DNA of 64,000 nucleotides from a bacterium (GCA_043821115.1 JBDRDD010000007.1:6276-70275); one strand, 5' to 3'; positions 1 to 24,398 are shown, counted from the first letter of the stretch. Notes: generated from the sequence alone by a model not told the origin. Numbers and translations: made by a program.

Positions 1-3000
1 AGGGACATCTCGGTAGTATATAAAGGCGATCCCGAGGAAGTTGTCCAGGAGGCGGCGTTCGGAGATATAGACCTTGTCCTTCCCACAACGGAATTTGTGG
101 CATATAACAAGAAACTCTTCGGTGCAAAGCTTGACGCTAAGTATAAGCGCTTAAGGCTTTTGGCTATAGGCAGCAGAACACAGGGAATCTCCGATTCCAA
201 AGAGTTCAAAGGAAGGACCACATTTCAAAAAAAGGATATCTATGACATAAGTTATGTAAAAAGAAAGTATTACAAGCTCTATTTTGACTCTGCACATCTG
301 CCAATATTGAATGCTACGGAGAAGATATATATAGATGACAAGGACAACAGTAATAACCTGGACACTACGCTTCGTACGGTATATGATTATGCCAATACGG
401 TCAATTACACGGGTGATTTTGACACCTTAGACAGAGGAGAAGACTATACTATTGATTATACCAAAGGCATTATTACCTTTAACAGTCCTGTTGGATCAAA
501 TTATGTTGTTGCCGTAGCCTATGAGTACAGCGGGGGTGACGTTGGGTATAGCAATAACATCAGGATGGTAAAGAATGAGGATGAAACCCTGGTTAACCGG
601 TCTCTTAAAAACTATTATAATCTTGGTGCTACGAAGATACTCGAAGAAGGATTCATAGTAAAGATACAGGACTTGAGTAAAGATGAAGCTACAGAGATTA
701 TACTCTATGAGAATAATACCGATAAAAGCCAATTCACTTCTTATCAGATAGAAGAACTGGATTTTGACACAGGTTTTTTGAGGTTTGTAAGTGAAACACC
801 TTTCCCCGCAGAAGTCTATACTACAAATCCAACCCAAAGCAAAATAATTTATGTGGAATACAAGCATAGCGTCAACACATACCGGCTTGGTAGGATCGAT
901 ATCTTGAGGGGAAGCGAGGAGATAAGGGTTAACGGTAACAAACTCGAAAGAGATGTTGACTATCTGATTGATTATGATATAGGCATGGTGACGTTTCTCA
1001 AAGAAGATATAATAAGTGAAGATTCAGATGTAAGGATTGATTTCGAATATCTGCCTTTCGGTGGACAGCTCCAGCAGACACTCGTAGGTGCCAGAGGTGA
1101 ATTGAGCCTGCACAGGAACTGGTTTGTCGGTTCAACCATAATGTACAACTGGAGCGCTCCTCCTACATATGTGCCTGATGTAAAGGGGGCACCTGAGAGT
1201 GTCCTGGTAATGGAGGCTGACTCAAGGTATAAGTTCGAGAAGGAAGGGGTTCCTTTTAAGGGGGAAATATCCGGAGAGATTGCCAGAAGCCAGAGGGATG
1301 TGAACACTTACGGCAAGGCCATGATCGACAACATGGAAGGCTCTAAGACAGAGGATATGATGCCCACTAATAAGCAATTGTGGCTGCCGGCAAGCAACCC
1401 GGGTCAATCTGCGGATAAAAGACAGGATATCACGCTGGATAATCAGGATGTAGACAGTGAAGATATAAATTCTAATGTGTTGGATAAGGATGCCAAGCAG
1501 CAGGTGTTGACATTAGGCTACAGTCTGCCTGATACTGATTCCTGGGCGTCAGTAGTATACCCTATATCTAAAACGGGTGTGGATTATTCTCAAAAACAGT
1601 ACCTGGAACTAAAGATGTACGGAGACGGCAGTAATACGGAGTTCAATATAGACCTTGGAAGAATCAGCGAGGATATTGACAGCGATGGTGTTATGGATAC
1701 GGAAGATGCTAATAAGAACGATGAACTTGATTCCGATGAGGATAATGGTCTTGACCTTAGCCTAGACCAGTTCGGCAATAATACAAGTCTGCCTTCCAAT
1801 TACGGTGAGGACGATGGGCGTCTTGATACCGAGGATTTGGATAGAGACGGAAATCTTGATTCAGAGGGATTTATTTCAAGGTATTCCTCTCTAACAGATA
1901 CTGCCGGGACAAGTTACACGAGTGTCAGCTGGACAGGGTGGAAAACATTCCAGATTCCTCTGGATATTACTGCAGCAAATAAGAGTAGCTGGGAGAATAT
2001 TAAGCATGTGCGCCTTTGGATGACCAGGGGAACTGGAACATCCGCTTCAGGAAGTCTGAAAATAGCGGCCATCAATATCGTGGGTAACAACTGGGAAGAC
2101 GGGGAAGTGACAGGTAGTGGTAGCCTGGATGTAAGATCTATAAATAACGAGGATGATTCCGGATATGTTACATTGCCGGATTCTTTCTACAATGATATTT
2201 ATAACGAAGATCTCGATGAAGACGATGTAAAGGAGCAGGCACTATCGCTTAAATACACACTAAGCAATGGTGAAGAGGGTCATACTAAGAAGACCTTCAC
2301 TTCAGCACAGGATTACAGAGATTACAAACAGCTCAGATTCTATGTTTACGGGACGAATTCCCTGGGAGGGACTGTTTATTTCAGGATAGGGACCGAAACT
2401 GCATATTTTGAGTTTGAAAAAGTTGTGGACTGGACAGGATGGAAACAGATAAACCTAAACCTGATTGACAAAAACAGCGATTTTCTTGCCGATACCATAA
2501 TTTATGACGACCAGGAACTTACAAAGGCGGGTACACCTTCTCTTGGCAATATCACGGAACTGCGTTTTGGTGTAAGAAATAATACGGGTGCCCAGATTAC
2601 AGATGGTGAGATATGGGTAAATGACATACATCTTGCCGATCCCCAGAGTAGAGTGGGAGAGGCAAAAAGGATACATATGAGCACCAGCTATAAGGATTGG
2701 TTTTCAGTAGATGCTGATTTCAAAACACAGGACAGGAACTTTGAGACTATAGGCAAGAAGAGTGCCGGGCAGGACTCTACGCGCTATAGTGTTGATCCAA
2801 GAATAACATATTTTAAGTTCCTTCCCATAATAGCCCACTGGGATAAACAGAAAACGATTACCCCGACTACCACAGGAACCGACCTGAGCAGCAGTGCGGA
2901 AGGTACGGTGACAAGTGAGAATAAGAATATAGGTGCGGATTTCAGGTATAAAAAATGGCCTCATCTTAACACGAAGGTTTCACAGTCCTTACAAGACATA

Positions 3001-4524
3001 GACCAGCAGCAGAAGAAAGCAAGGTCTGATTCGTTTGCCGGCAGCGGAGATTATGATATACCCACAAATATCTTCATATTTCCCAAGCGATTCAAAACTG
3101 GTTACACGCGCACCAATTCTTACACTAATTATGGTGTGTTTGCAACCGGTAATGAGAACTCTCTTGAGACTATAGATGACTGGAATGGTGAGCTCAACTT
3201 CAAACAGGCATGGGGCAAGCAAATGCAATTGCACAGTTTCGCAATAACACCTTCTTACAGGCTGAAAAGGGCAGAGCTTATGAAGCAGATGCAGGCTCCC
3301 GAACGCAAGCTAAGAAACCCCCGTTATACGGAACAGAGTGCAGGTGTGCAGACTGATTTCAAGTTCTTCGGGTGGTTCAAGCCGCAGGCTAATGCTAATG
3401 TAACTTCCCGTTCCGATTACAATACAGAGGCAAGCTCATACACCGTTACCTCTAAGAACATAAGAAGGGACAGTATTATAGATACTAAAATTCCCTTCGC
3501 CGCTCGCGATATTATATCGCAGTCCAGGTTTTTAAGGACCCTGGAGATAAAGCCGTCATATAAACTTGAGAGAAAAGACCAGTACGAATTTGTACGCAGT
3601 GATTTTTACATCCTTGACAAACTGTGGGTTGATGATAAGTTAAAGGTAGACGAAGATCCAAAAACCACGTATGCAAAGGATGACTTCAGGACTGAACTTC
3701 GATGGCAACCGCTGGAATTTCTTGAGCTTAAAAAGGGATGGAAACCTATAGGTACGGTTGATACAAGGATCCAATACAATACAATTGAGGAACACAGGAC
3801 AACAACAGGAACACCTTCCGATACATTTACAACTATCTGGCCTGATTTGGAGTTTACCTTCCATAACATTGAATATTTCCCGTTATTTTACAGTTTTATG
3901 CAAAATGCCAGGTTTACTGTATGGTATTCACTAAAGGAAATAGACAGAAAGAAAATATCTCTTAACGAAACCCAGAACTGGAGATTCAAGTGGAACTTCA
4001 AGATATTCAATAAGTATACGTGGATTATGGAATATCAGGACACCCTCTCTACGGACAAGAACGCGGACGGCGTGTATCAGAAGAATAATATAGTTCAGAA
4101 GGCAGGGACTCAGGTGAATTTTAATATCAGCAAGAATGTTCGCTGTAACCTGCGATACGATGAGAATCTAAGCAAGCAAAAAGGGCAGAGCCTTAGTTTT
4201 GCAAGAAGAAAATCACCGAGTATAACAGTAGTAAGCGATCTTAGATTTCCTGCGGGTTTGCGTATTCCGCTTCTTATGAGAAAGCCCATGTATTTGCGCA
4301 ATGCCCTTGAGATTTCAACTGCCCTGGCCGTGGATATGGAAGAGAGTAATGTGGCTAAAAACAACAAGAATACATACAAAGCCGATATAAGTGCGGATTA
4401 TGATGTTAGTAATAATTTCGTATTTACACTGGGAACAAGCTACTCCAAAGTAAATTATACACAGCTTCCTCAAAATAATTACTCAACTTTTAATTTGCTT
4501 TTTAAGCTCTTAATTAAATTCTAG
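1..4524 (+). CDS. Giant surface/outer-membrane protein, 5'-partial (N-terminus upstream of window); Asp-rich thrombospondin-type-3-like Ca-binding repeats; Tyr/Trp-rich C-terminal region ending in Phe (beta-barrel-like); possibly SprA-like
   Basis: ORF track 97..4524 (1475 aa) but frame is open from base 1 (RDISVVYKGDPEE...) and the in-window Met has no signal peptide; repeats DTEDANKNDELDSDEDNGLD / DTEDLDRDGNLDSEGF; terminal residue F. Confidence 0.8.
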   Translation, partial: RDISVVYKGDPEEVVQEAAFGDIDLVLPTTEFVAYNKKLFGAKLDAKYKRLRLLAIGSRTQGISDSKEFKGRTTFQKKDIYDISYVKRKYYKLYFDSAHLPILNATEKIYIDDKDNSNNLDTTLRTVYDYANTVNYTGDFDTLDRGEDYTIDYTKGIITFNSPVGSNYVVAVAYEYSGGDVGYSNNIRMVKNEDETLVNRSLKNYYNLGATKILEEGFIVKIQDLSKDEATEIILYENNTDKSQFTSYQIEELDFDTGFLRFVSETPFPAEVYTTNPTQSKIIYVEYKHSVNTYRLGRIDILRGSEEIRVNGNKLERDVDYLIDYDIGMVTFLKEDIISEDSDVRIDFEYLPFGGQLQQTLVGARGELSLHRNWFVGSTIMYNWSAPPTYVPDVKGAPESVLVMEADSRYKFEKEGVPFKGEISGEIARSQRDVNTYGKAMIDNMEGSKTEDMMPTNKQLWLPASNPGQSADKRQDITLDNQDVDSEDINSNVLDKDAKQQVLTLGYSLPDTDSWASVVYPISKTGVDYSQKQYLELKMYGDGSNTEFNIDLGRISEDIDSDGVMDTEDANKNDELDSDEDNGLDLSLDQFGNNTSLPSNYGEDDGRLDTEDLDRDGNLDSEGFISRYSSLTDTAGTSYTSVSWTGWKTFQIPLDITAANKSSWENIKHVRLWMTRGTGTSASGSLKIAAINIVGNNWEDGEVTGSGSLDVRSINNEDDSGYVTLPDSFYNDIYNEDLDEDDVKEQALSLKYTLSNGEEGHTKKTFTSAQDYRDYKQLRFYVYGTNSLGGTVYFRIGTETAYFEFEKVVDWTGWKQINLNLIDKNSDFLADTIIYDDQELTKAGTPSLGNITELRFGVRNNTGAQITDGEIWVNDIHLADPQSRVGEAKRIHMSTSYKDWFSVDADFKTQDRNFETIGKKSAGQDSTRYSVDPRITYFKFLPIIAHWDKQKTITPTTTGTDLSSSAEGTVTSENKNIGADFRYKKWPHLNTKVSQSLQDIDQQQKKARSDSFAGSGDYDIPTNIFIFPKRFKTGYTRTNSYTNYGVFATGNENSLETIDDWNGELNFKQAWGKQMQLHSFAITPSYRLKRAELMKQMQAPERKLRNPRYTEQSAGVQTDFKFFGWFKPQANANVTSRSDYNTEASSYTVTSKNIRRDSIIDTKIPFAARDIISQSRFLRTLEIKPSYKLERKDQYEFVRSDFYILDKLWVDDKLKVDEDPKTTYAKDDFRTELRWQPLEFLELKKGWKPIGTVDTRIQYNTIEEHRTTTGTPSDTFTTIWPDLEFTFHNIEYFPLFYSFMQNARFTVWYSLKEIDRKKISLNETQNWRFKWNFKIFNKYTWIMEYQDTLSTDKNADGVYQKNNIVQKAGTQVNFNISKNVRCNLRYDENLSKQKGQSLSFARRKSPSITVVSDLRFPAGLRIPLLMRKPMYLRNALEISTALAVDMEESNVAKNNKNTYKADISADYDVSNNFVFTLGTSYSKVNYTQLPQNNYSTFNLLFKLLIKF

Positions 4525-4535
4525 GATCAACTCAA

Positions 4536-5207
4536 GTGCCGACTGTATGGGATCATGTGCTCAATATTATCTTCCCGCTTCACTGCGAGGTTTGCGGTGC
4601 AGCTTTATCTGCCGATAACAGGAGAAGGCTTTGTTCTGATTGCTGGGAGAAGATTTTACTTTCCAGGAAGGTTTTCTGCCCGCTTCCCGCGATAGACGGA
4701 AACATATACCTTGACCAGGTAAGGTCTGTGGGTAAATATGAAGGCATACTGCGCCAATGCATACATATAACCAAATACCGCAAAAAGCCGGCTCTCTCAG
4801 AAGCTCTTGGTGAGCTCATGGTGGAATGCCTGAAACGTAACCAGAAAAATATGGGCTTTGACTGTATAGTGCCTGTTCCTCTTTACAGGCGCCAGCTTCG
4901 AAAAAGAGGATTCAACCAATCGAGGTTGTTTGCGGATAGGATATCAAAACATTTCGGGGTGCCGGTTGTAAATGCAGTCTTACGGACAAAGGCTACAAAA
5001 CCCCAGTATATGCTCCAGAGACAGGAGAGGATAGCCAATCTTACAGGAGCCTTCAGGATTAAAGAGTCGCAAGCTATTCGGGGTAGGGCTGTTTTGCTTG
5101 TTGATGATGTTTATACCACAGGGACCACCGCGCATGAATGTGCCCGGGTCCTGCGTGAGGCGGGCTCTGGCAAGGTGAGTATGCTCGCACTTGCTCATGG
5201 GGATTAG
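4536..5207 (+). CDS. ComF-family protein (double zinc-ribbon plus phosphoribosyltransferase domain)
   Basis: N-terminal CxxC...CxxC (CEVCGA...CSDCWE); C-terminal PRTase motif VLLVDDVYTTGTT. Confidence 0.85.
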   Translation: MPTVWDHVLNIIFPLHCEVCGAALSADNRRRLCSDCWEKILLSRKVFCPLPAIDGNIYLDQVRSVGKYEGILRQCIHITKYRKKPALSEALGELMVECLKRNQKNMGFDCIVPVPLYRRQLRKRGFNQSRLFADRISKHFGVPVVNAVLRTKATKPQYMLQRQERIANLTGAFRIKESQAIRGRAVLLVDDVYTTGTTAHECARVLREAGSGKVSMLALAHGD

Positions 5208-5290: not shown

Positions 5291-6931
5291 ATGCTTATAG
5301 AAGAGCTTCGTCAAGTAATCATTGAATCTATTAGAGATATGGGTATAGGGGATATTCCTGATTTTTCCCTGGATAGCTGTCCTGGCGACATAGATGGCGA
5401 TCTGTCAACAAATCTTGCTTTTATGGCTTCAAAAAAGCTGAGAAAATCTCCCGCTGAGTCCGGCAAGGCTGTTATTGAAGCAATTGAAAATAATAAGGCA
5501 GCCTCTGGGCTTATTGAAAAAATGGAAATTGCCGGCAAGGGTTTTATCAACTTTTTTATAACAAGTAAGAGGCTTCACACGGAACTCTCAGCAATACTCA
5601 AGGAAAAAGAGAATTACGGCAGACAGGATATAGGAAAAGGGGCGAGTGTACAGATAGAGTTTGTCTCGGCAAATCCTACAGGTCCTCTTCATATAGGTCA
5701 TGGAAGGGGTGCTGCCATAGGTGACAGCCTGGCCCGTATTCTTTCCGAGAGCGGATTTAATGTCCAGAAGGAATACTATATAAACAACAGGGGAAAACAG
5801 ATAGAACTTCTGGGTCAATCGGTAATGGCCAGATATAAAGAATTAAGCGGAGAAAAGATATCTTTTCCGGAGGATGGCTACAAGGGAGAGTATATAAAGC
5901 ACCTTGCCGCTAAAGTGCCTGCTGGCGTCAAAAAATATGATAAAGAATTCTTCAAGGAATTTGCCATAACCTCTATACTTGAGCAAATAAGGAAGGACCT
6001 TGAGGATTTCGGTGTAGTGTATCAAAGGTGGTTTACGGAAACGGATCTTTATGAAAAAGGTGAAGTTGAGAAGATGCTACAGCGTCTTTTAAAGGAGAAA
6101 TACCTTTACGAACAGGATGGGGCGATGTGGTTCAAATCCTCGGCGTTTGGAGACGAGAAGGACAGGGTCGTTGTCCGTGCTGACAAGGAGCCGACCTATC
6201 TGGCATCAGACATCACCTATCATTGGGATAAATTCAACAGGGGTTTTGATACCGTAGTAGATATATGGGGTGCAGACCATCACGGGTATGTTAAAAGGGT
6301 CAAGGCCAGTGCACAGGCCCTGGGATATTCCCCGGATAAAGTAAAAGTGATACTTTATCAGCTTGTTAGCTTATCCCGCGCGGGTAAGCCGCAGCCTATG
6401 TCAACGCGCGCCGGTGAGTTCGTGACGCTAAGGGAAGTGATAGACGAGGTCGGGACGGATGCATGCAGGTTCTTCTTCCTGATGCGCGGGGCTAATTCTC
6501 ATCTGGACTTTGATCTCGAGCTTGCAAAGAAGCAGTCCCCCGAAAATCCTGTTTACTATGTTCAGTACGCACATGCACGCATCTCGAGTGTCTTCAGGGA
6601 GGCTACGAAGGCGGGATACTTATTATCTGATAAGCTACCACAAGCCGAAGAGCTGGATGTGCTCCAGGCACCTGAGGAGATAGCTCTTATAAAGAAATTA
6701 ATGTACTTTCCGGAACTGGTGGCTCTTAGCGTCAGGACCTATGATCCTCACTGGGTTACTGCGTACGTTCAGGAGCTTGCCAAGGTATTCCATAACTATT
6801 ACCAGAAGTGCAGGGTTATTACAGAGGATAAAAATCTTACGAGGGCAAGGCTGTATCTGCTTAAGGCTGTTGGGCTCATGATATCAAGGAGTCTTGCACT
6901 CATAGGAGTAAATTCCCCGGAGAAAATGTAA
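5291..6931 (+). CDS. argS: Arginine--tRNA ligase
   Basis: Class I HIGH region PTGPLHIGHGRGAAIGDSLARIL; length 546 aa; typical ArgRS C-terminal anticodon-binding region. Confidence 0.95.
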   Translation: MLIEELRQVIIESIRDMGIGDIPDFSLDSCPGDIDGDLSTNLAFMASKKLRKSPAESGKAVIEAIENNKAASGLIEKMEIAGKGFINFFITSKRLHTELSAILKEKENYGRQDIGKGASVQIEFVSANPTGPLHIGHGRGAAIGDSLARILSESGFNVQKEYYINNRGKQIELLGQSVMARYKELSGEKISFPEDGYKGEYIKHLAAKVPAGVKKYDKEFFKEFAITSILEQIRKDLEDFGVVYQRWFTETDLYEKGEVEKMLQRLLKEKYLYEQDGAMWFKSSAFGDEKDRVVVRADKEPTYLASDITYHWDKFNRGFDTVVDIWGADHHGYVKRVKASAQALGYSPDKVKVILYQLVSLSRAGKPQPMSTRAGEFVTLREVIDEVGTDACRFFFLMRGANSHLDFDLELAKKQSPENPVYYVQYAHARISSVFREATKAGYLLSDKLPQAEELDVLQAPEEIALIKKLMYFPELVALSVRTYDPHWVTAYVQELAKVFHNYYQKCRVITEDKNLTRARLYLLKAVGLMISRSLALIGVNSPEKM

Positions 6932-6932
6932 A

Positions 6933-8765
6933 ATGAAAAACAAAAAACTTATATCGTTAACAGTAATTTTAACTCTGATGGTGGTTTTATATCCTTTAGC
7001 AGGATACGCTGAGAAAGAAGTAGGTGGTGAACCTGGTTCTTTTTTGACCATGGCACAGGGTGCGAGGTCACTGGCGCTCGGAGGCGCTTTTGTAGGGCTT
7101 GCGGATGACGCTTCGGCCCTTTGGGCGAATCCAGCGGGATTACATGAGTTAAATAAGATGGAATTTGTATCGCTTTTTGCGCCGTTATGGGAGGATACTA
7201 ATTACAGTCTTCTGGGATACGCGCATCCCACGGTTAGCTGGGGAACGTTTGCAGCGGGAGTGACGCAGATATCAAGCAAGAATTTCAAGAGGAGACTCAC
7301 CGTAAGTGACAGCCCGACTAATTTTAATGTTGTGGAGCAGGCATATTTTCTCTCCTACGGCCAAGGGTTTCTTGAGAAGTTCTCAGCCGGGGCGAGTTTT
7401 AAGATGGTTAATCAGAAGATAGATACCTACAGTGATTCAAAGTTGGGCGTGGATATAGGCGCCATGTACAGGTCTTTTGATAAGAAGTTTTCGCTTGGTT
7501 TCAACGTGCAGAACGTAATGCCGCCGAAGATGAAATTAAGAGATGAATATGACACATATCCTATCATCGCCAAGATGGGCGGTGCGTATACTTTCAAACC
7601 TGAAAAATCCGAAAGTAACCGAAAGCTTACTTTATGCTTTGAGATGGATTATTCCGCTTTCACGGAATACTTAAAGACAGCAGCTGGTGTCGAGTACTGG
7701 ACAGGGCCTTTTCTGGCTCTGCGGCTAGGTAAGGACACCTATGACGATCTTACATTCGGTTTCGGCTTTGCGTACAATGACCTTCAGTTAGATTACGCGC
7801 TTGCCAATCATGAGCTTGGTCTCACCCATCGCTTTTCACTTACCTACCGGTTCGGGTACATAGGAGAATCAAAGTACAGTGAGAAGGCTATTAGCAAGAA
7901 GATCAAGGATCACGATATGAAGGGACAGATGCATTACGAAGCAGCTAAGTATTCCCAGGCTCTGGGTGAATGGGAAAAAGCTCTCATTTGGAACCCTGCT
8001 GATAAAGAAATACAGGCAAAGCTCGAAAGAGCCAATAACCAGCTCGAAGCCATAGTCAATAAGAAGCTTCTTGAGGATCGTATTGACAAGGCATATATTT
8101 CCTACGAAGAAGGAAATATGGTTGAATCAATGGAACACTGGCAGGAGGTCTCAAAGTTGGACCCGGCTAACGACAGGGCCAAGGAATATATTGAGAAAAT
8201 AAACAATGTGCTCGTAAAAGAGGAAAAGGAGATTTACCAGGAGCGTCAGAAAGAAAAAGAAATATTGATTATAGCAGGCCATATTGAGAAAGGTCAGGGG
8301 TTCTACAGGAAGAAGCAGTATGACAAGGCTATAAAAGAGTGGAAGAAAGTAATTGCCATACGTCCGGATCACCTGCAGGCTTCAAGCAAGATACGTCAGG
8401 CAGAGGATAAGATAAAGGATTCTATAAAATCACATCTTGATAATGGTATAGATTTCTATAATTCCGGGAAGACAGCCGATGCTATCCGTGAGTTAAAGCT
8501 TGTGCTGTCCTATGAAAAGGATAATGAGCAGGCTAAAGATTATCTGTCTAAGGCAGAGATTGTGGGAAAAGAGATTCGCAAAAAGGTAGACCCGCATCAA
8601 GTCAACCGGCTTTATTACCAGGCTGCTGATATGTATCTTAAGGGAAGCTACCAGGAATCTGTAGGGGTTCTGGACGAACTTTTAATTATGGATCCTGTCA
8701 ATGAAAACGCACTGAAGCTCATGGATAAAGTGCAGAGTGTTATGGAGGTGCTTGGAAAACGATGA
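6933..8765 (+). CDS. FadL/PorV-like outer-membrane beta-barrel fused to a C-terminal TPR-like helical domain
   Basis: Signal peptide; hatch-like motif GARSLALGGAFVGLADDASALWANPAGL; barrel-terminal strand THRFSLTYRF at about aa 300, then about 300 aa of helical repeats; starts 2 nt after argS stop. Confidence 0.8.
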   Translation: MKNKKLISLTVILTLMVVLYPLAGYAEKEVGGEPGSFLTMAQGARSLALGGAFVGLADDASALWANPAGLHELNKMEFVSLFAPLWEDTNYSLLGYAHPTVSWGTFAAGVTQISSKNFKRRLTVSDSPTNFNVVEQAYFLSYGQGFLEKFSAGASFKMVNQKIDTYSDSKLGVDIGAMYRSFDKKFSLGFNVQNVMPPKMKLRDEYDTYPIIAKMGGAYTFKPEKSESNRKLTLCFEMDYSAFTEYLKTAAGVEYWTGPFLALRLGKDTYDDLTFGFGFAYNDLQLDYALANHELGLTHRFSLTYRFGYIGESKYSEKAISKKIKDHDMKGQMHYEAAKYSQALGEWEKALIWNPADKEIQAKLERANNQLEAIVNKKLLEDRIDKAYISYEEGNMVESMEHWQEVSKLDPANDRAKEYIEKINNVLVKEEKEIYQERQKEKEILIIAGHIEKGQGFYRKKQYDKAIKEWKKVIAIRPDHLQASSKIRQAEDKIKDSIKSHLDNGIDFYNSGKTADAIRELKLVLSYEKDNEQAKDYLSKAEIVGKEIRKKVDPHQVNRLYYQAADMYLKGSYQESVGVLDELLIMDPVNENALKLMDKVQSVMEVLGKR

Positions 8766-10096
8766 AAAAAAAACTAATTATATCAATACTGGTCGTTACG
8801 TTAGGATGGGGTTTTGCTAATGCGGGCACATGGGAGGAATTCCGGACAGATTTCGCTCCCAACGCGAGGATAGGGCACGTGGCCATATACGATCCTAACT
8901 CGGATGCGATGGTCGTTATGGGAGAAGCGGGGGCTACGGATCAAAATATATACTCCCTTGACCTAGGCACGGGAGAATGGATAATAAAGAGCTCTTCGGA
9001 GGCTACCGTAGCCAGGGCGGACCATTCTATAGTTTATGACAGCAGCAGAAACAGGGCACTTGTTTTCGGGGGAAGCACGCTAGGAAGACAAGATGTCAAC
9101 GGCTATGAGAATGTAACGTATTACTGGAATTTTGCTACACCGGCATGGGGTGCTATAACTACAACAGGTACTGCTCCCATGGACAGGATAGACCATTCTG
9201 CGATTTATGACAGCGCTAATGATTGTATGATCGTATTTGGTGGCATCGGAGACGACGGTCTTTATAAAAATGATGTGTACAGTCTTGACCTGGCTACGGC
9301 AGTGTGGAGCCAAATAACGACAAGCGGTACCGCGCCCCAGTCAAGGTTCAAGCATTCGGCAATTTATGACTCAACTAATAACCGTATGCTGATGCTAGGA
9401 GGCAGTTCTGCTCTTAGTCTTGCCCATAGTGATCTGTGGGCACTTGACCTGAGGACGGATCCGGGGACTTTTGCGTGGAGTCAGCTTTCTACTACAGGAG
9501 ATACTTTTCCCGGACGCACGGGGCAATCAATAGTTTTTGACCCTGATACGGGAACACAAGGCTCTATTATAGTGTTCGGGGGAATGGATCCCCTTGCTAT
9601 AGAGTACAAAAATGATACCTACATTCTTGATATTGCCACTTTGACCTGGTCAAAAGTGGAGCCGGGGCTTGTTCCGCCTTCAAGACGTACGGATCATGTT
9701 GCAGTATACGATACTGATAACAACAGGATGTTTATTTTCGGTGGCTATAGCGGGACCAGTAACTTGAACAGTTGTTATACACTTGATATTACAGACCGTT
9801 GGCCGTCTGATTCCGATGACAGCGAGGTTTTTAATTACCCGAATCCATTCAAGGCCGGCGCGGAGAACACCAACATAACTTTTTACATGCAAAGCGCGGG
9901 GAAGGTTAATATCAAGATCTATACGCTGGTAGGGGGGCTGGTGAAGACATGGTCTCTAAACAGCAGCAGGGGAATAAATAAAGTCGTATGGGACGGTAAG
10001 AACGGGGAAGAAAAAGTAGTGGGCAATGGTGGCTACATATGCGTGGTTGAAAAGCCCAATTCTAATATAAAATTCAAAATAGCGGTTGCAAAATAG
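8762..10096 (+). CDS. Kelch-repeat beta-propeller surface protein with T9SS-type C-terminal sorting (Por_Secre_tail/FlgD-Ig-like) domain
   Basis: Signal peptide; repeated Kelch-like blades (ALVFGG, MIVFGG, MLMLGG, IIVFGG, MFIFGG); C-terminal tail FNYPNPF...VVWDGKN...GGYICVV...KFKIAVAK; ATGA overlap with upstream gene. Confidence 0.85.
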   Translation: MKKKLIISILVVTLGWGFANAGTWEEFRTDFAPNARIGHVAIYDPNSDAMVVMGEAGATDQNIYSLDLGTGEWIIKSSSEATVARADHSIVYDSSRNRALVFGGSTLGRQDVNGYENVTYYWNFATPAWGAITTTGTAPMDRIDHSAIYDSANDCMIVFGGIGDDGLYKNDVYSLDLATAVWSQITTSGTAPQSRFKHSAIYDSTNNRMLMLGGSSALSLAHSDLWALDLRTDPGTFAWSQLSTTGDTFPGRTGQSIVFDPDTGTQGSIIVFGGMDPLAIEYKNDTYILDIATLTWSKVEPGLVPPSRRTDHVAVYDTDNNRMFIFGGYSGTSNLNSCYTLDITDRWPSDSDDSEVFNYPNPFKAGAENTNITFYMQSAGKVNIKIYTLVGGLVKTWSLNSSRGINKVVWDGKNGEEKVVGNGGYICVVEKPNSNIKFKIAVAK

Positions 10097-10115: not shown

Positions 10116-11501
10116 ATGGCTACTCCAAAAGCGAAAATAAAACTCATAAGCAGGATCGCGTTGAAATTCAGTGCGATTGTCTGCTTTATTATCCTACTCA
10201 TAATGCTTCTTATGGCAAGCCTTATACTGCAGCAGACAAGGCAGTCATTGATAAAAGAGATGGAGATAAAAACAGAATTTTTTGCCCGCGATGTCAGGGA
10301 ATCCATGTTCCCCCAGCCGGATCCATTTCAGTTATTCTTCAGTGTTAACGAGATGATAAAAGACAAGGCTACGCTCTATGCCATCGTGCTTGACACAAAG
10401 GGAGAGATAGTTTCACATCACGACAGGGAGAGAATAGGCTCGCTTGATAAGAGTTCTGTGTCTCTTAGGGCGATGCAGAGCTCAGAGGTTCTTACCCAAC
10501 CCTACAAAAAAGGCTCGGAAGAATTATATGACATCTCTGTTCCTATCATGGTCGGAAAGGATCACAGGATAGGAACCGCACGCATAGGATTTTCCAAATC
10601 TTCCATAAATGCCGCGCTTGCAGAGAAAAGGAATAAGATTATAAGTATCACCATTGTCATGCTGGCGATTGGTGTGTTAGGGACAAGCATTGTGGTAACA
10701 CTAATGGTCAACCCGATAAATACGCTTGTTAAGGCCGCGCGCGGGATAGGTGAGGGAAAGCTGGACCAGGAGATAAATATAAAAGGTAAAGATGAGATAG
10801 GACAGCTTGCCAGGGCGTTTAGTGAAATGGTAAAAGGTCTTAAGGAAAGGGATTTTATACGAAATACCTTCGGGAAATACGTGACAAAGCAGGTTGCCGA
10901 AGCCATCCTTGAGGGGCAGCTCGAACTTGGAGGGGAGCGAAAAAAGGTTACGATACTCATGTCTGACATAAGGGGTTTTACAAAAATGAGCGAGAAACTT
11001 CCTCCCGAGGAAGTCGTGGACTTTCTAAACCTGTACTTTACGAAGATGGTGGATGTAATCAATAAGTACGAGGGAACTCTCGACAAATTCATAGGCGATG
11101 CGCTTCTTGCGGTGTTCGGCGCGCCTATAGCCCACATGGATGACGCAAGAAGAGCAGTATTTGCGGGAATAGAAATGAGCGAAGAGCTTGCGAAATTCAA
11201 TGCCGAGAGGCATAAGAACAATCAGGACCCTCTGGAGATAGGCATTGCCATTCATACAGGGGATGTTGTCGCTGGGAACATAGGTTCTGAGACCCGCATG
11301 GAGTATACAGTTATAGGAAATACCGTTAACCTTGCATCACGGGTCGAGAAGCTTAATAAGAAACTCGGTACCATGATGCTGATAACAGATGATACCTATC
11401 AAGAGGTAAAAAATGTCGTTGAAGTGAAGGATATAGAGCAGGTGAGTATAAGGGGTATAGAGAAACCCGTTAAGATATACGAGGTTGTGGGAAGAAAATA
11501 A
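10116..11501 (+). CDS. Membrane-bound class III adenylate/guanylate cyclase with HAMP domain
   Basis: N-terminal TM segments, HAMP-like linker (EIGQLARAFSEMVKGLKE), cyclase domain VTILMSDIRGFT...FIGDALLAVFGAP...IGIAIHTGDVVAGNIG. Confidence 0.9.
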   Translation: MATPKAKIKLISRIALKFSAIVCFIILLIMLLMASLILQQTRQSLIKEMEIKTEFFARDVRESMFPQPDPFQLFFSVNEMIKDKATLYAIVLDTKGEIVSHHDRERIGSLDKSSVSLRAMQSSEVLTQPYKKGSEELYDISVPIMVGKDHRIGTARIGFSKSSINAALAEKRNKIISITIVMLAIGVLGTSIVVTLMVNPINTLVKAARGIGEGKLDQEINIKGKDEIGQLARAFSEMVKGLKERDFIRNTFGKYVTKQVAEAILEGQLELGGERKKVTILMSDIRGFTKMSEKLPPEEVVDFLNLYFTKMVDVINKYEGTLDKFIGDALLAVFGAPIAHMDDARRAVFAGIEMSEELAKFNAERHKNNQDPLEIGIAIHTGDVVAGNIGSETRMEYTVIGNTVNLASRVEKLNKKLGTMMLITDDTYQEVKNVVEVKDIEQVSIRGIEKPVKIYEVVGRK

Positions 11502-11529
11502 ATTTTTATTTTCTGGAAGCTAAGACAAA

Positions 11530-11554
11530 AGTAGCAGCGTTGGTTGCTGCTACT
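11530..11554 (+). terminator. Hairpin after the cyclase gene (possible intrinsic terminator)
   Basis: Inverted repeat agtagcagc-gttggtt-gctgctact followed by A/T-rich tract (taattta). Confidence 0.4.
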
Positions 11555-11581
11555 TAATTTATATGTACGCAAAAGGGTGTA

Positions 11582-19151: not shown

Positions 19152-20576
19152 TTGAAAGAACAGGCGAATATTCTTATAGTCGAACATGAAGCTTCGGTTT
19201 GTGATACCCTAAAAGGCATCCTCGCACAGGATGGCTATAATGTTGAATCGGCCACACTTGGCAAAGATGCGCTGCTACATCTGAAGGATTCTGTGTTTAA
19301 CATGGTGGTCTTGGATGTAAGTCTGCCTGATATAAACAGTCTTGACCTGCTCAGGGCTCTTAGACGGTCAAGTCCTTTTGTCTTTGTTCTTGCCACCGCG
19401 GGTGGCGGTGATTTCGAAAGGGTATTGGCTGCGGTAGAGGGAGGGGCATACAGCTATATAATGAAGCCCTGCAATAGCGACGAATTCAAGGTCATGGTAA
19501 AAAAGGGTATCGAAAGCCAGAAACAGATTCTGGTTAATCTGAAGTTACTTGAGAAGCTCAAAGAAAAGAAGGAGAAGACAGAGGATATACTATCTATATG
19601 CGAGGCGATGAGTTCGACCAATGATATGGGAACGCTTGTAAATCTTATTGTTAGCGAAATCTCGCGTTTTCTAGGTGCGAAAAAAGCATCTCTTATGCTG
19701 GTTGAGGAAGGGTTGCAGTATCTGGTTATAAAAGCTGCAAAAGGTATAGATGAGAAAATTGTAAAAGCCACCAAGATACGTATTGGTGATGGCATAGCGG
19801 GATGGATAGCACAGGAAGGTAAGCCATGGGTCGTCACGGATATTGAGCAGGACTCAAGGACCAGACAGCGTAACAAGTCCTCATATGAGACCAAATCATT
19901 CATGAGTATACCCATTAAGCTAGGTAGCAAGGTGAGGGGTGTTGTGAATATTTCCGACAGGGTAACTGAAGGGGCCTCCAGTTTCACGGAGGAGGACCTG
20001 CGCCTGAGTATGATAATAATGCGCCAGGCGGCAAGCGCTTTGCAGAACTGTTACCTTAACGAGAAGATAGCAAAGATTGACATAAAAGATAACATTACCG
20101 ATGCGTTCAACCAGAAATATCTTAATCAGAGACTGATAGAAGAGATAAGCAGGGTACACCGTTACAAGGGATGTCTTTCAGTCGTAATGCTCGATATAGA
20201 TTATTTCAAGCAGTACAATGACAGAGCCGGTTACATGATGGGCAATACGATAATAAAGGAGTTTTCTCAGATAATTAAGGAGAACATACGCGGTGTGGAC
20301 ACGATGGCGCGCTACGAAGGCGGATGTTTCGTGCTTATCCTGCCTCAAACCGATGTCAAAAGTGCATACGCGGTAGCGGAAAAGATAAGAAAGGTAATAA
20401 GCGAGTATCCTTTCCCGGAATCGCAGAAGCAGCCTGCGGGACGGGTGACCATAAGCGGGGGAATCGCGGAACTAGTAAAAGGCATGGACAAAGAAGAGCT
20501 TATTAGCAGGGCGTATCAGGCACTGTTGCAGGCTAAGGGGTCCGGTCAGAAAAATACTATTTCAATCCACACTTAA
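19152..20576 (+). CDS. Response regulator with REC-GAF-GGDEF architecture; GGDEF active-site motif degenerate (EGGCF), I-site RxxD retained
   Basis: REC (VLDVSLPD); GAF; GGDEF-fold with IRGVDTMARYEGGCFVLILPQTD instead of GG(D/E)EF. Confidence 0.9.
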   Translation: MKEQANILIVEHEASVCDTLKGILAQDGYNVESATLGKDALLHLKDSVFNMVVLDVSLPDINSLDLLRALRRSSPFVFVLATAGGGDFERVLAAVEGGAYSYIMKPCNSDEFKVMVKKGIESQKQILVNLKLLEKLKEKKEKTEDILSICEAMSSTNDMGTLVNLIVSEISRFLGAKKASLMLVEEGLQYLVIKAAKGIDEKIVKATKIRIGDGIAGWIAQEGKPWVVTDIEQDSRTRQRNKSSYETKSFMSIPIKLGSKVRGVVNISDRVTEGASSFTEEDLRLSMIIMRQAASALQNCYLNEKIAKIDIKDNITDAFNQKYLNQRLIEEISRVHRYKGCLSVVMLDIDYFKQYNDRAGYMMGNTIIKEFSQIIKENIRGVDTMARYEGGCFVLILPQTDVKSAYAVAEKIRKVISEYPFPESQKQPAGRVTISGGIAELVKGMDKEELISRAYQALLQAKGSGQKNTISIHT

Positions 20577-20579
20577 ATC

Positions 20580-21005
20580 ATGAAACACACCACACTAACA
20601 AGCAGCGTCCATCAGACAGTACAGTTTGGAAAACAATTCTCTAAAAAACTCAAGCCCGGAGATGTAGTGGCTCTGACGGGTGCTCTTGGAGCAGGCAAGA
20701 CTTCTTTTACACAGGGTATTGCCCGTGGGCTTGGGGTAAAAGGCTATGTAAGAAGTCCTTCCTTTACATTGATTAATGAATACAGCGGTAAATTACCGGT
20801 GTTTCACTTTGACCTTTACAGGCTTGAGAATATCCGCGAGATAGAATCCCTGGGATACGGGGATTACTTTTTTGGCAGCGGGGTGACAGTCATAGAATGG
20901 GCTGAGAAGGCAAAAGAAATTCTTCCAGGAAACTATTGGCTGATAAAACTCGTTAGCACCGGTGAGAACATACGCAGGATCACTGTGAGGAAAGTAGGCA
21001 AATGA
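20580..21005 (+). CDS. tsaE: tRNA threonylcarbamoyladenosine biosynthesis ATPase TsaE
   Basis: P-loop GALGAGKTSFTQGIARGLGV; 141 aa. Confidence 0.92.
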   Translation: MKHTTLTSSVHQTVQFGKQFSKKLKPGDVVALTGALGAGKTSFTQGIARGLGVKGYVRSPSFTLINEYSGKLPVFHFDLYRLENIREIESLGYGDYFFGSGVTVIEWAEKAKEILPGNYWLIKLVSTGENIRRITVRKVGK

Positions 21006-21730
21006 AAGTACTGGGACTGGAAACCTCGACCTTGATAGGAAGTGTGGCCCTTATTGACTCAAACGGGAATTGTCATGAAGAGGCATGGGACGTCGGGAGC
21101 GCTCATTCGGATGCTGTGTTTGGGAGTATAGACAGGATCCTCATCAGAGCAAAAGCGCATGCAAGCGATATTGATGCAGTCGCAGTGTCATTGGGTCCCG
21201 GGTCATTTACGGGAATACGAATAGGCGTAACAATCGCACGCACGCTGGGTCAAGTGCTTGGAAAACCCGTGGCAGGTATATCAACGCTGGATGTACTGGC
21301 TCATAACGTTGCAGTGTCGGACGTATTGATATGCCCGGTTATTGATGCCCTTCGCGCAGAGGTTTATACAGCGCTTTTTGAATATAGTGGTAAAGAAAAA
21401 AAACTAAAGAAACTAACTGACTATTCTATAGTGGAAGTAGATAAACTAAAATCCTGGATCTATTCCAAAAATAAGAAAAGGTATAAGCACATTGTTTTGG
21501 TTGGGCCCGCGCTGGACAAATATGAGAATATTCTCAGGGAAAAGTTTAAGAAGACCGCAGTTATGGGAAATAAAAAAGACTTGTTCCCTCATGCAAGTAC
21601 GGTGGCAGAGCTGGGGGCAAAGGCAGTTGTTGATCGCAGGGCTCAGAGCTGGAATAAGATATTGCCTTTATATATCCGGCGTTCTGAGGCTGAAGTTAAG
21701 TGGGACCAGAGGAATAAGGTAAAAAAATAG
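21002..21730 (+). CDS. tsaB: tRNA threonylcarbamoyladenosine biosynthesis protein TsaB
   Basis: MKVLGLETSTLIGSVALID... YeaZ-type N-terminus; ATGA overlap with tsaE. Confidence 0.9.
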   Translation: MKVLGLETSTLIGSVALIDSNGNCHEEAWDVGSAHSDAVFGSIDRILIRAKAHASDIDAVAVSLGPGSFTGIRIGVTIARTLGQVLGKPVAGISTLDVLAHNVAVSDVLICPVIDALRAEVYTALFEYSGKEKKLKKLTDYSIVEVDKLKSWIYSKNKKRYKHIVLVGPALDKYENILREKFKKTAVMGNKKDLFPHASTVAELGAKAVVDRRAQSWNKILPLYIRRSEAEVKWDQRNKVKK

Positions 21731-21808
21731 TACACTTCCTTTAATATTTATTGGCGTTTGTGTTATATAATGTTAAAATACTGTATGCATTTAGAAAGTA
21801 TACTAGCC

Positions 21809-21843
21809 TTGACTTTATTTTATTTTTATGGTATACTTATAAT
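21809..21843 (+). promoter_or_regulatory. Sigma70-type promoter for the kinase gene cluster
   Basis: TTGACT - 17 nt - TATACT followed directly by TATAAT; 14-mer GGTATACTTATAAT identical to the one at 34646..34659. Confidence 0.5.
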
Positions 21844-21863
21844 GCATAGAAGTATCCTTAACA

Positions 21864-21897
21864 TTATAATATAATGATATATGACATTATATTATAA
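21864..21897 (+). promoter_or_regulatory. Perfect 13-bp inverted repeat (candidate operator) just downstream of the promoter -10
   Basis: TTATAATATAATG - 8 nt (atatatga) - CATTATATTATAA. Confidence 0.45.
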
Positions 21898-21910
21898 AGG
21901 GGGATTCTGT

Positions 21911-23353
21911 ATGCTTTTAAAAAGAAAGTTGCTTTTAGCATTTTTAGGCATATCACTTTTTATTGTTCTTGTGACAAGTATAGTTCTCATCGATAGTGGC
22001 AAAACATTGAACAAGGCAATAGAGCTTACAAGCCAGTGGAACACGGCCCAGTTAAAAATCATAGAGGCTCAGGAAGCAGAGAAAAATTACGTCCTTGAAC
22101 GCAAAGGGCTTATTCCGCACCTGGGTGCCGGTTATGAAAAGGAATTCTTCACGTCTGTCGATAGTGCGAAGGATGCGTCAAGGCGTGACAAAGAAATAGT
22201 AATTGTAATAGAAATTTACTCGGATTATTTTACAGAGGTACTGGAGAAGGACACTCTTGATGAGAAAACAATAGAAACGCTGCGTGATAAGGGCAATGAG
22301 GCGAGAAAGATTGTCTCGGAAAAAGTTGTAAGCGTTCAGAATAAAGCTGGTGACACCCAGAAGAGGATTTCATCAATACTTCTCGTCGCCTTTTTTGTGG
22401 GTGCGGGAGTCTCTGTAGGTGGTGCTGTATTCTTTTCCAGGCTTATAGCTGAACCGCTTGTGAAACTGACACGAAGCGCGCGCAAGATAGCCGAAGGTGA
22501 TATATCTCAGGAAGTTCCTGTAATAAGCCAGGATGAAATAGGGGAGATAGCTGCTGTCGTAAACAAGCTCTCCCATGAACTGTTTAAGGCGAATAAAACC
22601 CTTGCCGACGGGAAGAAAGATCTCGAGCTACAGCTTGCCAGGCATACAAAGGAACTCCAGGATAAGCAATCTGATACGATAGAGTCAGAGAGAAAGGGTG
22701 CGGTCGAGCAGCTGGTCAACGCGATAGATACCGGGCTTACCATGAAACTCAGTAACCTCCGGGCGCTTGTATACCAGATGAGAGACAAAATTCCAAAAGA
22801 AGAGAAGGCCCTTTCGTTAGATATGACAAATGTTGTAAGAAGTGTTAACCAGGCTACCAGGGTAAGCAATAATATCCTAGCGTATTTTAAGCACCCTGTC
22901 CTGAATATAGAGTTTTCAGATGTAAACCGCGCCATCCAGGAAACCTTGATGATGAAGGAAAAAGAAGGTATATTCGATGACATCAAGGTAGTGCGCAGGC
23001 TGCAGGGGGGTATTCCCCAGATTCCTCTTGACGCGAGGTACATGAAAATTGCCCTTGATAACCTCTTTACCAATGCATACCAGGCAATGAGCGGGGCGGG
23101 GGAACTTATAGTTATGACAAGCGCCGTGCCCGGTGAAATAGAGATAAAGATCACGGATTCGGGAGTCGGCGTAAGCGATGACAACAGGGGTAAGATATTT
23201 ACACCGTTTTTTACCACCAGGGAAGACAACCTCGGGCTGGGTTTGGTAGTAGTTAGGGAGATAATAAAGCAGCATCGAGGCAACATAGCGATGCAGAGTA
23301 CGGTTGGAAAAGGAACCACTTTCATAATAAAGCTGCCGGTGGTTCCGAAATAA
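21911..23353 (+). CDS. Histidine-kinase-like sensor (TM, HAMP, HATPase_c) lacking a recognisable phospho-acceptor His in the H-box position
   Basis: Complete N, G1, F, G2 boxes (LDNLFTNAYQAM, DSGVGV, IFTPFFTT, GLGLVVV); H-box position reads VNAIDTGLTMKLSNL; start set to second ATG (21911), which has an RBS. Confidence 0.85.
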   Translation: MLLKRKLLLAFLGISLFIVLVTSIVLIDSGKTLNKAIELTSQWNTAQLKIIEAQEAEKNYVLERKGLIPHLGAGYEKEFFTSVDSAKDASRRDKEIVIVIEIYSDYFTEVLEKDTLDEKTIETLRDKGNEARKIVSEKVVSVQNKAGDTQKRISSILLVAFFVGAGVSVGGAVFFSRLIAEPLVKLTRSARKIAEGDISQEVPVISQDEIGEIAAVVNKLSHELFKANKTLADGKKDLELQLARHTKELQDKQSDTIESERKGAVEQLVNAIDTGLTMKLSNLRALVYQMRDKIPKEEKALSLDMTNVVRSVNQATRVSNNILAYFKHPVLNIEFSDVNRAIQETLMMKEKEGIFDDIKVVRRLQGGIPQIPLDARYMKIALDNLFTNAYQAMSGAGELIVMTSAVPGEIEIKITDSGVGVSDDNRGKIFTPFFTTREDNLGLGLVVVREIIKQHRGNIAMQSTVGKGTTFIIKLPVVPK

Positions 23354-23372
23354 ACCAAGAAGGATTCAGCCA

Positions 23373-24398
23373 ATGAAGATCAATATGAAGAAAAGAAGCA
23401 AACTGATAAATAAGCTTATAGGGTTATTCGTACTTGTCACTATCCCTATCCTTGCGATAAGCGTTAAACTGCTTATTGCCTCCAATAAATTTGACTTGGG
23501 ATCTGTGATATACATAGCGTACAGCGTCATTATAGCTGTAATAATCGCGGTGTTCTTTATTAACCACAGCATCATACGTCCGCTGGAGCAGCTCCATGAA
23601 GGATCTGAAAAGATAAAGGACGGTGATTTCGAGCACAGGCTTGTCGTGAGGTCAAATGACGAGATAGGGGACCTGACCAACTCGTTTAACGAGATGACGG
23701 ATGACATGAGGCGAAAGATAGTAGAGCTGGGTGAGTACAACACCACCCTCAAGGATAAACTTGAGAGGGCGAGCCTCGAGCTGAAGAAAAGCCAGGAGAA
23801 ACTCCTTCATCTTGAGAAAATCTCCACAATGAAGCAGATCGTTACATCCGTGACGCATGATCTGAAAGATCCTTTAACCGGTATAAAGACCGCCGCTTAT
23901 TACCTCGGTGAGAAGATCAGCAAGGATAACCCGGCGCTTACGAATATAATACGCGACATTGAAACAGAGATAGAGTACGCCGACAATATAGTGACCAACA
24001 TACTCTCTCTGGCGCGTCCTACAAATACGGGCCTTAAGCCCACAAATATAAATGAGGTAGTTGAGAAAGCCATTGCTCTTATAACCTCGCAGGCCATATT
24101 GCAGAAGATAAAGATTGTGAAGGTCCTTCATCCGTCTCTTCCCGCAATGCTTGCCGATGATACGCAGCTTAAACAGGTATTTATTAACTTGCTTCTTAAC
24201 GTCTTCCAGAGTATGCCACAGGGAGGGGAGCTTACCATAAGTACAGCAGAGAATGCAGGCAGGCTGGAGGTTAAGATAGTTGACTCAGGCAACAATGACA
24301 GGGTGTTCGAACCTATATTCAGCTCCAGGGACAATGACAAAAACAGAGACCTGGTCATTATGACCGAGGTAGCAAGAAACAGGGAATATGACGAATAA
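23373..24398 (+). CDS. Sensor histidine kinase with intact H-box but degenerate/truncated ATP-binding domain
   Basis: HAMP; H-box SVTHDLKDPLTGI; N-box NLLLNV and DSGNN present, but G2 box replaced (DKNRDLVIM) and protein ends about 30 aa early relative to its paralog. Confidence 0.85.
   Translation: MKINMKKRSKLINKLIGLFVLVTIPILAISVKLLIASNKFDLGSVIYIAYSVIIAVIIAVFFINHSIIRPLEQLHEGSEKIKDGDFEHRLVVRSNDEIGDLTNSFNEMTDDMRRKIVELGEYNTTLKDKLERASLELKKSQEKLLHLEKISTMKQIVTSVTHDLKDPLTGIKTAAYYLGEKISKDNPALTNIIRDIETEIEYADNIVTNILSLARPTNTGLKPTNINEVVEKAIALITSQAILQKIKIVKVLHPSLPAMLADDTQLKQVFINLLLNVFQSMPQGGELTISTAENAGRLEVKIVDSGNNDRVFEPIFSSRDNDKNRDLVIMTEVARNREYDE

Follow-up and report, generated by a model that had tools for sequence, protein, structure and literature searches.

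A candidate T9SS-linked surface module: a PorV/PorQ-family barrel with a long TPR arm, a Kelch protein with a type A sorting domain and a Cache-HAMP cyclase

In the T9SS (type IX secretion system) of Porphyromonas gingivalis, 14-stranded outer-membrane barrels of the PorV/PorQ family are paired with surface proteins that carry a type A C-terminal domain (CTD). PorZ, whose body is a β-propeller, and PorU, an enzyme, are anchored by PorQ and PorV, respectively (PMC7463736); the CTD is retained and bound to the barrel in these pairs (PMC7463736, PMC10202324), and cognate PorV-like barrels have been proposed to shield CTDs from cleavage (PMC10202324). We analyzed a 64-kb stretch of bacterial DNA (GCA_043821115.1 JBDRDD010000007.1:6276-70275; "the window" denotes this whole stretch, in which every gene lies on the plus strand) that contains three successive genes, encoding a PorV/PorQ-family barrel with a long tetratricopeptide repeat (TPR) arm (6933-8765, 610 aa), a Kelch protein with a type A CTD (8762-10096, 444 aa) and a Cache-HAMP-class III nucleotidyl cyclase (10116-11501). 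We read this locus as a three-gene, T9SS-linked surface module that relays surface events to the cytoplasm, a reading that we place a little short of probable; the barrel-Kelch pair reads as PorQ/PorZ-like, and synteny alone suggests the relay to the sensor. An earlier note on this DNA had described the barrel and the Kelch protein and overlooked two genes, the conserved cyclase that forms the third gene of the module and an upstream SprA homologue.

The locus departs from each of the described systems in several respects. The passenger is one six-bladed Kelch propeller rather than the two propellers of PorZ or the C25 peptidase of PorU, and the barrel, unlike PorQ and PorV, carries a 300-aa TPR arm, is encoded by a gene adjacent to and overlapping that of its partner, misses the equivalog cut-offs and comes from a lineage apparently outside the Fibrobacteres-Chlorobi-Bacteroidetes (FCB) superphylum. 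SprF/PorP-like barrels and their type B cargo (SprB, PG1035) likewise follow a scheme of one barrel per cargo, with adjacent genes, CTD-anchored cargo and, joined to the barrel in the periplasm, an element that contains TPR or OmpA (PMC9143113). The present locus differs in its type A CTD, in a barrel of the PorV/PorQ family and in a TPR that is part of the barrel protein itself instead of residing on a separate lipoprotein. Closest on the signaling side is PorA-PorY-PorX-SigP, in which PorA, a type A CTD protein that binds PorV, activates the sensor kinase PorY, an inner-membrane protein that has a periplasmic domain (PMC7712824, PMC12152298). The PorA and PorY genes of P. gingivalis are not linked, PorY is a histidine kinase, and PorV lacks a TPR arm and is not needed for signaling; here, in contrast, the parts form one gene cluster with a class III cyclase as output (PP2C or histidine kinase in other phyla). 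The FadL-like outer-membrane proteins of Treponema pallidum (UPF0164; TP0548, TP0859, TP0865) also combine a 14-stranded barrel with a presumably periplasmic helical extension containing a TPR motif (PMC8407342). Their extension is a short three-helix bundle, whereas the arm described here spans ~300 aa and 13 helices, and CTD cargo, SprA or a Cache-HAMP partner have not been reported for the treponemal proteins. In concept, the arrangement further resembles the TonB-dependent transducers (FecA-FecR-FecI), in which a periplasmic domain of the barrel contacts an inner-membrane signaling protein encoded beside it; transducers of the FecA type have a 22-stranded barrel, an N-terminal signaling domain and a FecR/FecI partner. 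The likeness is one of analogy only: here the barrel has 14 strands, the TPR is C-terminal, the partner is a cyclase, there is no TonB box or anti-sigma factor, and the presumed ligand-binding part is a separate CTD-anchored protein. The family label of the barrel had already been given by automatic annotation, NCBI holding the exact 610-aa protein as 'MAG: PorV/PorQ family protein [bacterium]', and the long TPR fusion and the Cache-HAMP link constitute the new part. In the literature we found no description of a long TPR arm fused to a PorV/PorQ barrel, of a conserved link of TPR-armed barrels to Cache-HAMP signaling enzymes, or of T9SS components in Elusimicrobia/Elusimicrobiota. The only related observation found was the short treponemal extension (PMC8407342), and T9SS genes are said to be absent outside the FCB superphylum.

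The assignment of the first gene product is carried by both profile and structure comparisons (NF033709, AlphaFold2 (AF2) and Foldseek for the signal peptide, hatch and barrel encoded at 6933..7853). The PorV/PorQ family model NF033709 matched residues 36-307 at 136.3 bits against a curated cut-off of 90, whereas the equivalog cut-offs were missed throughout (PorQ NF033711, 83 against 220 bits; PorV NF033710, 35 against 250; PorV2 NF052325, 43 against 325), as was that of the PorP/SprF model TIGR03519 (22.6 against 90.6 bits). By these scores, the protein is a PorV/PorQ family member and the orthologue of no named component, and it looks more like PorQ (83 bits), an anchor, than like PorV (35 bits). 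An AF2 model computed from 30 homologues (mean predicted local distance difference test, pLDDT, 86) places a helical hatch at residues ~31-72 behind the signal peptide (aa 1-26), 14 strands at 76-307 and an all-helical arm at 317-609. Foldseek returned Flavobacterium johnsoniae PorV from SprA complexes as the top Protein Data Bank (PDB) match of the barrel model (8gl6_F, E = 2e-12, and 6h3i_F), with FadL and TodX lower, and a profile built from the three barrels of the window (described below) matched PorV 6h3i_F end to end (E = 3e-22). The FadL/PorV-like barrel proposed in the earlier note is upheld by these results, with PorV ahead of FadL and TodX. Residues N66-P67-A68-G69, which correspond to the NPA hatch motif of FadL, are invariant across the 30 homologues. 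A C-terminal strand motif had also been noted, and it is indeed common to the three barrels, but in the 610-aa protein the segment THRFSLTYRF is the last barrel strand (~296-307) and not the end of the protein.

The ~300-aa TPR-like extension is real, with a Pfam TPR_2 match in the C-terminal half of the protein (E = 7e-15) and 13 helices modeled at pLDDT ~85-90 (aa 317-609, encoded at 7881..8765). Because an even-stranded barrel (14 strands) puts both of its ends in the periplasm, the arm should be periplasmic. We collected ~30 full-length barrel-TPR homologues at 28-64% identity, and the arm is kept at full length in all of P0002-P0030. In other homologous barrels, the position of the TPR arm is taken by OmpA, CsgG/LpoB-like or Ig-like domains, which is consistent with a periplasmic arm, and the PorV-family barrel appears to be a platform for presumably periplasmic add-ons. 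Among proteins P0032-P0117 these C-terminal additions comprise a FlgD_ig-like Ig domain in many proteins of ~418 aa and OmpA in P0085, with a CsgG/LpoB-like domain in P0089, P0091 and P0118. A Rosetta-stone reading of the ~418-aa fusions, in which a barrel joined to a FlgD_ig-like domain would be evidence of barrel-CTD binding, was considered and dropped, because the extra domain follows the last strand, which should place it in the periplasm together with the added domains of the OmpA and CsgG/LpoB-like variants.

The second gene encodes a secreted propeller with a sorting domain. Behind an N-terminal Sec signal (MKKKLIISILVVTLGWGFANA, with the boundary before G), the AF2 model (pLDDT 86) shows a six-bladed Kelch propeller at residues 23-342 (signal peptide and propeller, 8762..9787), a linker at 345-366 that is disordered (pLDDT below 50) and a six-stranded β-sandwich at 370-442 (CTD, 9869..10096). 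Pfam Kelch families matched down to E = 4e-61, and the closest Foldseek matches of the propeller were the Kelch domains of KLHDC2/3/10 and LZTR1; the modeled propeller resembles peptide- and protein-binding Kelch domains. On the tail, TIGR04183 (T9SS type A sorting domain) matched residues 359-441 of the 444 at 29.6 bits (curated cut-off, 23), and FlgD_ig scored 26.6 bits, bearing out the earlier proposal of a T9SS-type C-terminal sorting domain.

The third gene starts 19 nt past the Kelch stop codon and encodes an inner-membrane sensor enzyme, in which a transmembrane segment, a periplasmic sCache_3_2 domain (aa ~41-172), a second transmembrane segment, a HAMP domain (196-243) and a class III nucleotidyl cyclase domain (276-456) follow one another; hydrophobic segments lie at 8-42 and 173-205, and Pfam scores were 95 bits for Guanylate_cyc (PF00211), 45 for HAMP and 36 for sCache_3_2. 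The metal-binding Asp residues of the cyclase are present (MSDIRGFT, FIGDA), and the specificity pair is Lys...Thr (in DKFIGDA and EYTVIGNTVN), which we take to be typical of class IIIb adenylate cyclases and which suggests that the product is an adenylate-type cyclase. An 11-bp stem-loop after the cyclase stop (11529..11555), found by a consensus terminator-like scan only and having a strong hairpin and a weak T-run, is probably the end of the transcription unit.

The barrel-Kelch pair is one of three such pairs in the window. The barrels starting at 6933, 33623 and 49550 align over their full length at 32-34% identity with 62 invariant columns, sharing G-A-R, A-D-D, N-P-A-G and H-R-x-S-L...F, and the tails of their three neighbors read YPNP...WDG/WNC...GxY...K. 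In the second pair, an NHL propeller-fn3-type A CTD protein (31265-33613) is followed by a short PorV/PorQ-family barrel (33623-34612), and in the third an Ig-repeat type A CTD protein (47395-49524) is followed by another short barrel of this family (49550-50506); the order of cargo then barrel is that of most loci. Scores for the second and third pairs were 201 and 197 bits with NF033709 and 32.9 and 34.4 bits with TIGR04183, and the CTD protein of the third pair also matched Por_Secre_tail at 33 bits. The description of three barrels with a common motif, each beside a YPNP-tailed protein, is thereby supported by hidden Markov model scores far beyond chance.

Beyond the window, we scanned one genome per species with the pattern A[VIL][YWF][WY]NPAGL, which misses the window's own ALWANPAGL, and recovered 80 loci with PorV-family barrels from taxa including Elusimicrobia, Endomicrobia, Calditrichota, Ignavibacteria, Zixibacteria, WOR-3, KSB1, Poribacteria, FCPU426, Bacteroidota and Rhodothermia. 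With local open reading frame (ORF) calling and an iterated CTD profile, CTD-bearing genes accounted for 62/164 genes directly beside a barrel (38%) compared with 30/712 genes further away (~4%; odds ratio 14, p = 3e-28), an enrichment of ~9-fold, and 56 of 85 barrels had a CTD neighbor on the same strand, mostly upstream. NCBIfam models matched most of the 57 non-redundant barrel-adjacent tails (TIGR04183, 47; PorU CTD, 53; PorZ CTD, 40; type B TIGR04131, 3). On the strength of the adjacency counts and the NCBIfam confirmation, we conclude that one barrel with one type A CTD protein is a general gene-pair rule. Of the dedicated cargo-shuttle pairs postulated in the earlier note, the pairing stands, whereas for the shuttle role PorQ-PorZ-like anchoring fits at least as well. 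As a side observation, the barrel-adjacent tails match the PorU CTD model more often than the generic type A model; PorU and PorZ are the two T9SS proteins with a CTD that stays on a barrel, and the tails may represent a 'retained CTD' subclass.

The association of the barrel with the sensor was followed in the same way. The order of barrel-TPR, Kelch-CTD and Cache-HAMP-cyclase genes is kept in four further genomes (loci L001, L002, L006 and L008; GCA_028712365.1, GCA_054772775.1, GCA_002441095.1, which holds L006 and L007, and GCA_016218565.1, which holds L008). Independently, a metagenome search that used just the TPR arm as query yielded 29 loci, 14 of which contained a barrel-TPR gene and enough downstream DNA, and in each of these 14 assessable loci a sensor lay within two genes of the barrel-TPR gene. 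A Kelch-CTD gene stood between barrel and sensor in 10 of the 14; another CTD protein took its place in L106 and L107 (381 aa and 1616 aa), the barrel-TPR gene directly preceded a sensor-cyclase gene with no CTD gene between them in L103, and in L113 the CTD protein (1802 aa) was encoded upstream of the barrel and no cyclase domain was detected in the sensor (1111 aa). In the genome set, a sensor was found within ±3 genes of 13/25 non-redundant long barrels compared with 1/55 short barrels (p = 2e-7), and near 13 of the 19 barrels with a recognizable TPR arm.

The output domain of the sensor differs between lineages. In seven loci from Calditrichota, Ignavibacteria and Bacteroidota, the barrel-TPR gene comes after that of a giant CTD protein (1200-4500 aa) and before that of a HATPase_c_2-sCache_3_2-HAMP-SpoIIE sensor. 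At one Endomicrobiales locus the sensor is instead an sCache_3_2-HAMP histidine kinase, with a periplasmic domain similar to the one in the window cyclase (E = 3e-12). The barrel-TPR protein, the CTD protein and the Cache-HAMP enzyme are inherited together, while passenger and output domains are exchanged; a swapped surface protein and output around a constant barrel-TPR and Cache-HAMP core is the pattern expected of a modular signaling device. The N-terminal domain of the SpoIIE-type sensors (L004, L011, L014, L016, L018, L024, L040) is an RsbW-like HATPase_c_2, a STAS gene comes next in at least L004, and helix-turn-helix domains occur in L018, L024 and L040; these loci suggest that the same barrel-TPR input feeds a partner-switching output. 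We also observed an extracytoplasmic function sigma factor gene and four small ORFs without a Pfam match upstream of the triad at L006 (6910-9724), L007 (2705-5519) and L008 (6424-9898).

A SprA/Sov homologue lies within the window at 1-4524, ending 2.4 kb upstream of the barrel gene. The window holds the C-terminal 1475+ aa of this 1682-aa protein (P0121), whose 5' end lies outside it. The full-length protein, which NCBI names 'hypothetical', reached 210 bits with TIGR04189 (cut-off, 200; 157 bits for the part inside the window) and matched PDB SprA 6h3i_A at E = 2e-17; compared with F. johnsoniae SprA (2403 aa) it is shorter by ~30%, and the two aligned in parts only. Homologues of P0121 measure 1650-1900 aa, and the named ones come almost exclusively from metagenome-assembled genomes (MAGs) of Elusimicrobia/Elusimicrobiota. 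The lineage appears to lie outside the FCB superphylum, its phylum being read from homologue labels (Elusimicrobia) and the source MAG being labeled 'bacterium'; its HU, GltX, LipA and ArgS proteins are all singletons among 90% clusters. GCA_016218565.1, an Elusimicrobia-labeled MAG whose SprA is 35% identical, carries SprA-like and ComF-like genes a few genes upstream of its triad, as does the window. In both, the SprA-like gene is followed by the ComF-like gene (double zinc ribbon plus phosphoribosyltransferase; window 1-5207, L008 426-6321), and the two may be a conserved pair.

In the mechanism that we propose, the Kelch protein would be exported via the SprA-like pore, passed to its own barrel and held there by its CTD with the propeller displayed, a step that we regard as reasonably probable and that would parallel the display of PorZ on PorQ and of PorU on PorV. 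The periplasmic TPR arm would then touch the Cache domain of the cyclase, or cargo in transit, such that surface occupancy or a ligand is relayed to cAMP synthesis; this second step we see as a genuine possibility that falls below the probable. With more doubt, we put forward tentatively that loci of this kind represent an undescribed trans-envelope signaling device built from T9SS parts, namely a surface protein that is anchored by its CTD and can be swapped (Kelch propeller or giant adhesin with Ig repeats), a barrel resembling PorQ, the periplasmic TPR arm of that barrel and a Cache-HAMP protein of the inner membrane. Its outputs would be swappable as well (cAMP synthesis, PP2C partner-switching phosphatase, histidine kinase), its range would extend over Elusimicrobia-labeled MAGs, Calditrichota, Ignavibacteria and Bacteroidota, and a reduced SprA/PorV/CTD export outside the FCB superphylum would follow as a corollary.

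Several points weigh against a relay module of this kind. Contacts between barrel and CTD, between TPR arm and Cache domain, and between barrel and SprA are argued from synteny alone, and the synteny could reflect co-regulation only. A nearby sensor was missing for 6 of the 19 TPR-armed barrels in the genome set, and no PorK/L/M/N/W/T/U/Z was found among the ~40 window proteins, each searched with Pfam, NCBIfam or both. The barrel reaches the subfamily cut-off only and not the equivalog level of PorV or PorQ. In canonical T9SS, PorU cleaves type A CTDs, with the cargo either linked to anionic lipopolysaccharide (A-LPS) or released; retention of the CTD is hypothetical here, and TPR domains of the T9SS (PorW/SprE, PorE) are structural linkers and not signaling parts.

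In a plainer account, possible but in our estimate unlikely, the barrel is a dedicated shuttle, as the earlier note had it, that receives its Kelch cargo from SprA and passes it on to be stripped of its CTD and released or attached, with the TPR arm as a structural tether to periplasmic T9SS scaffolds or the cell wall in the manner of PorW/SprE and PorE, and the cyclase as no more than a co-located regulator. PorV is the known shuttle of type A cargo (PMC7463736), PorP-like barrels pair with TPR/OmpA PorE-like proteins (PMC9143113), TPR-containing PorW joins the PorK/N ring to Sov (PMC8754138), and some homologous barrels carry OmpA in place of the TPR. A shuttle leaves unexplained, however, why Cache-HAMP proteins follow TPR-armed barrels and almost no short ones across phyla, and why these proteins have three different outputs; nor does it sit well with a barrel that is nearer to PorQ, the anchor, than to PorV. 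A further account, which we judge improbable, is a feedback circuit akin to PorA-PorY: the CTD of cargo that has not yet left the periplasm would bind the Cache domain as its ligand, export capacity or backlog instead of surface events would be what the cyclase reports, and the TPR arm would dock cargo before export. The CTD of P. gingivalis PorA binds and activates PorY in the periplasm and PorA also binds PorV (PMC12152298), and a CTD protein stays beside the sensor despite a change of passenger in L106, L107 and L113; yet L103 has no CTD gene between barrel-TPR and sensor-cyclase, and PorA signaling in P. gingivalis is independent of PorV, which leaves the conserved barrel-TPR protein unexplained.

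The lowest-ranked account, which we consider very improbable, makes the barrel an uptake channel of the FadL/UPF0164 type that admits hydrophobic compounds and has no part in secretion, and treats its CTD neighbor as coincidental. Its attraction lies in the FadL/TodX-like fold, the NPA hatch and a match to Pfam UPF0164 (PF03687, treponemal FadL-like) at 26.1 bits against a cut-off of 21.4, together with the periplasmic TPR-containing extension of the T. pallidum FadL-like proteins (PMC8407342). The UPF0164 match aligned residues 38-138 only and as a profile hit is one of superfamily-level relatedness, and in both structure and sequence the barrel matches PorV best. Toluene_X (FadL/OMPP1/TodX, PF03349) gave no match to the 610-aa protein at E ≤ 0.01 and stayed below threshold for the paralogous barrels (18.1 and 22.4 bits against 29.7); the enrichment of CTD genes beside barrels and the SprA homologue upstream likewise count against an uptake channel.

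We return to the surroundings of the proposed relay module. The window is chromosomal core, with housekeeping genes and an rRNA operon at 39680-45050, in which the 16S gene occupies 39680-41275. The argS ORF (5291-6931) ends with a TAA at 6931, the ATG of the barrel gene lies at 6933, one base past the argS stop, and the start of the Kelch gene overlaps the barrel stop as ATGA; the ORF limits, spacing and overlap given in the earlier note all agree with our ORF map. Its suggestion of co-translation with argS, in contrast, is weak, the upstream gene being different at every related locus that we examined. We considered argS coupling as a meaningful feature and rejected it: the upstream gene encodes a histidine kinase in L001, GidA in L002 and a 630-aa metagenomic clade, an ORF of no known identity in L006 and a cNMP-binding protein in L008. 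Because the upstream gene varies while the sensor stays, we take the argS adjacency to be incidental and the cyclase to be the real partner. The cNMP-binding protein of L008 (148 aa), encoded directly before the barrel gene, is a possible cyclase effector.

Elsewhere in the window, signaling genes are unusually dense at 19152-25878 and 55254-62021, including two REC-GAF-GGDEF proteins, HAMP histidine-kinase fragments, one CZB, one dCache-HAMP and one PAS protein, and a 1080-aa dCache-HAMP-PAS-HK-GGDEF protein whose homologue lies upstream of the module in L001. Two prepilin-type genes (GspI/PilV-like, N_methyl; 29302-30920) directly precede the NHL-fn3-CTD gene of the second pair. A c-di-GMP-I-GGC riboswitch (34698-34782; 65 bits, gathering score 59) directly follows the barrel of that pair, and downstream of it are genes for a 181-aa TPR protein (34832-35377; weak Tgl/BamD-like matches) and a secreted protein of 1302 aa that includes a GH113-like domain (35400-39308); this region points to a c-di-GMP-controlled surface or polysaccharide operon beside a T9SS-type pair. 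The coaBC gene is split at 46143-47335 into a CoaC ORF (46143-46694) and a CoaB fragment (46793-47335), the missing N-terminus of CoaB (LKGKTVLVTAGPTREYIDPVR...) being found in another frame from ~46660, and we attribute the split to a frameshift that is an assembly error, a pseudogene or recoding.

If our reading is true, T9SS-type export, as represented by SprA, PorV/PorQ barrels and type A CTDs, would extend past the FCB superphylum, and the idea that a cognate barrel retains its own CTD protein, so far confined to PorQ-PorZ, PorV-PorU and SprF-SprB, would be generalized to type A proteins. The only link between a CTD protein and a sensor known so far is PorA-PorY in P. gingivalis; TPR-armed barrels together with Cache-HAMP enzymes of exchangeable output would offer a concrete and testable candidate for surface sensing by bacteria with T9SS-displayed adhesins.

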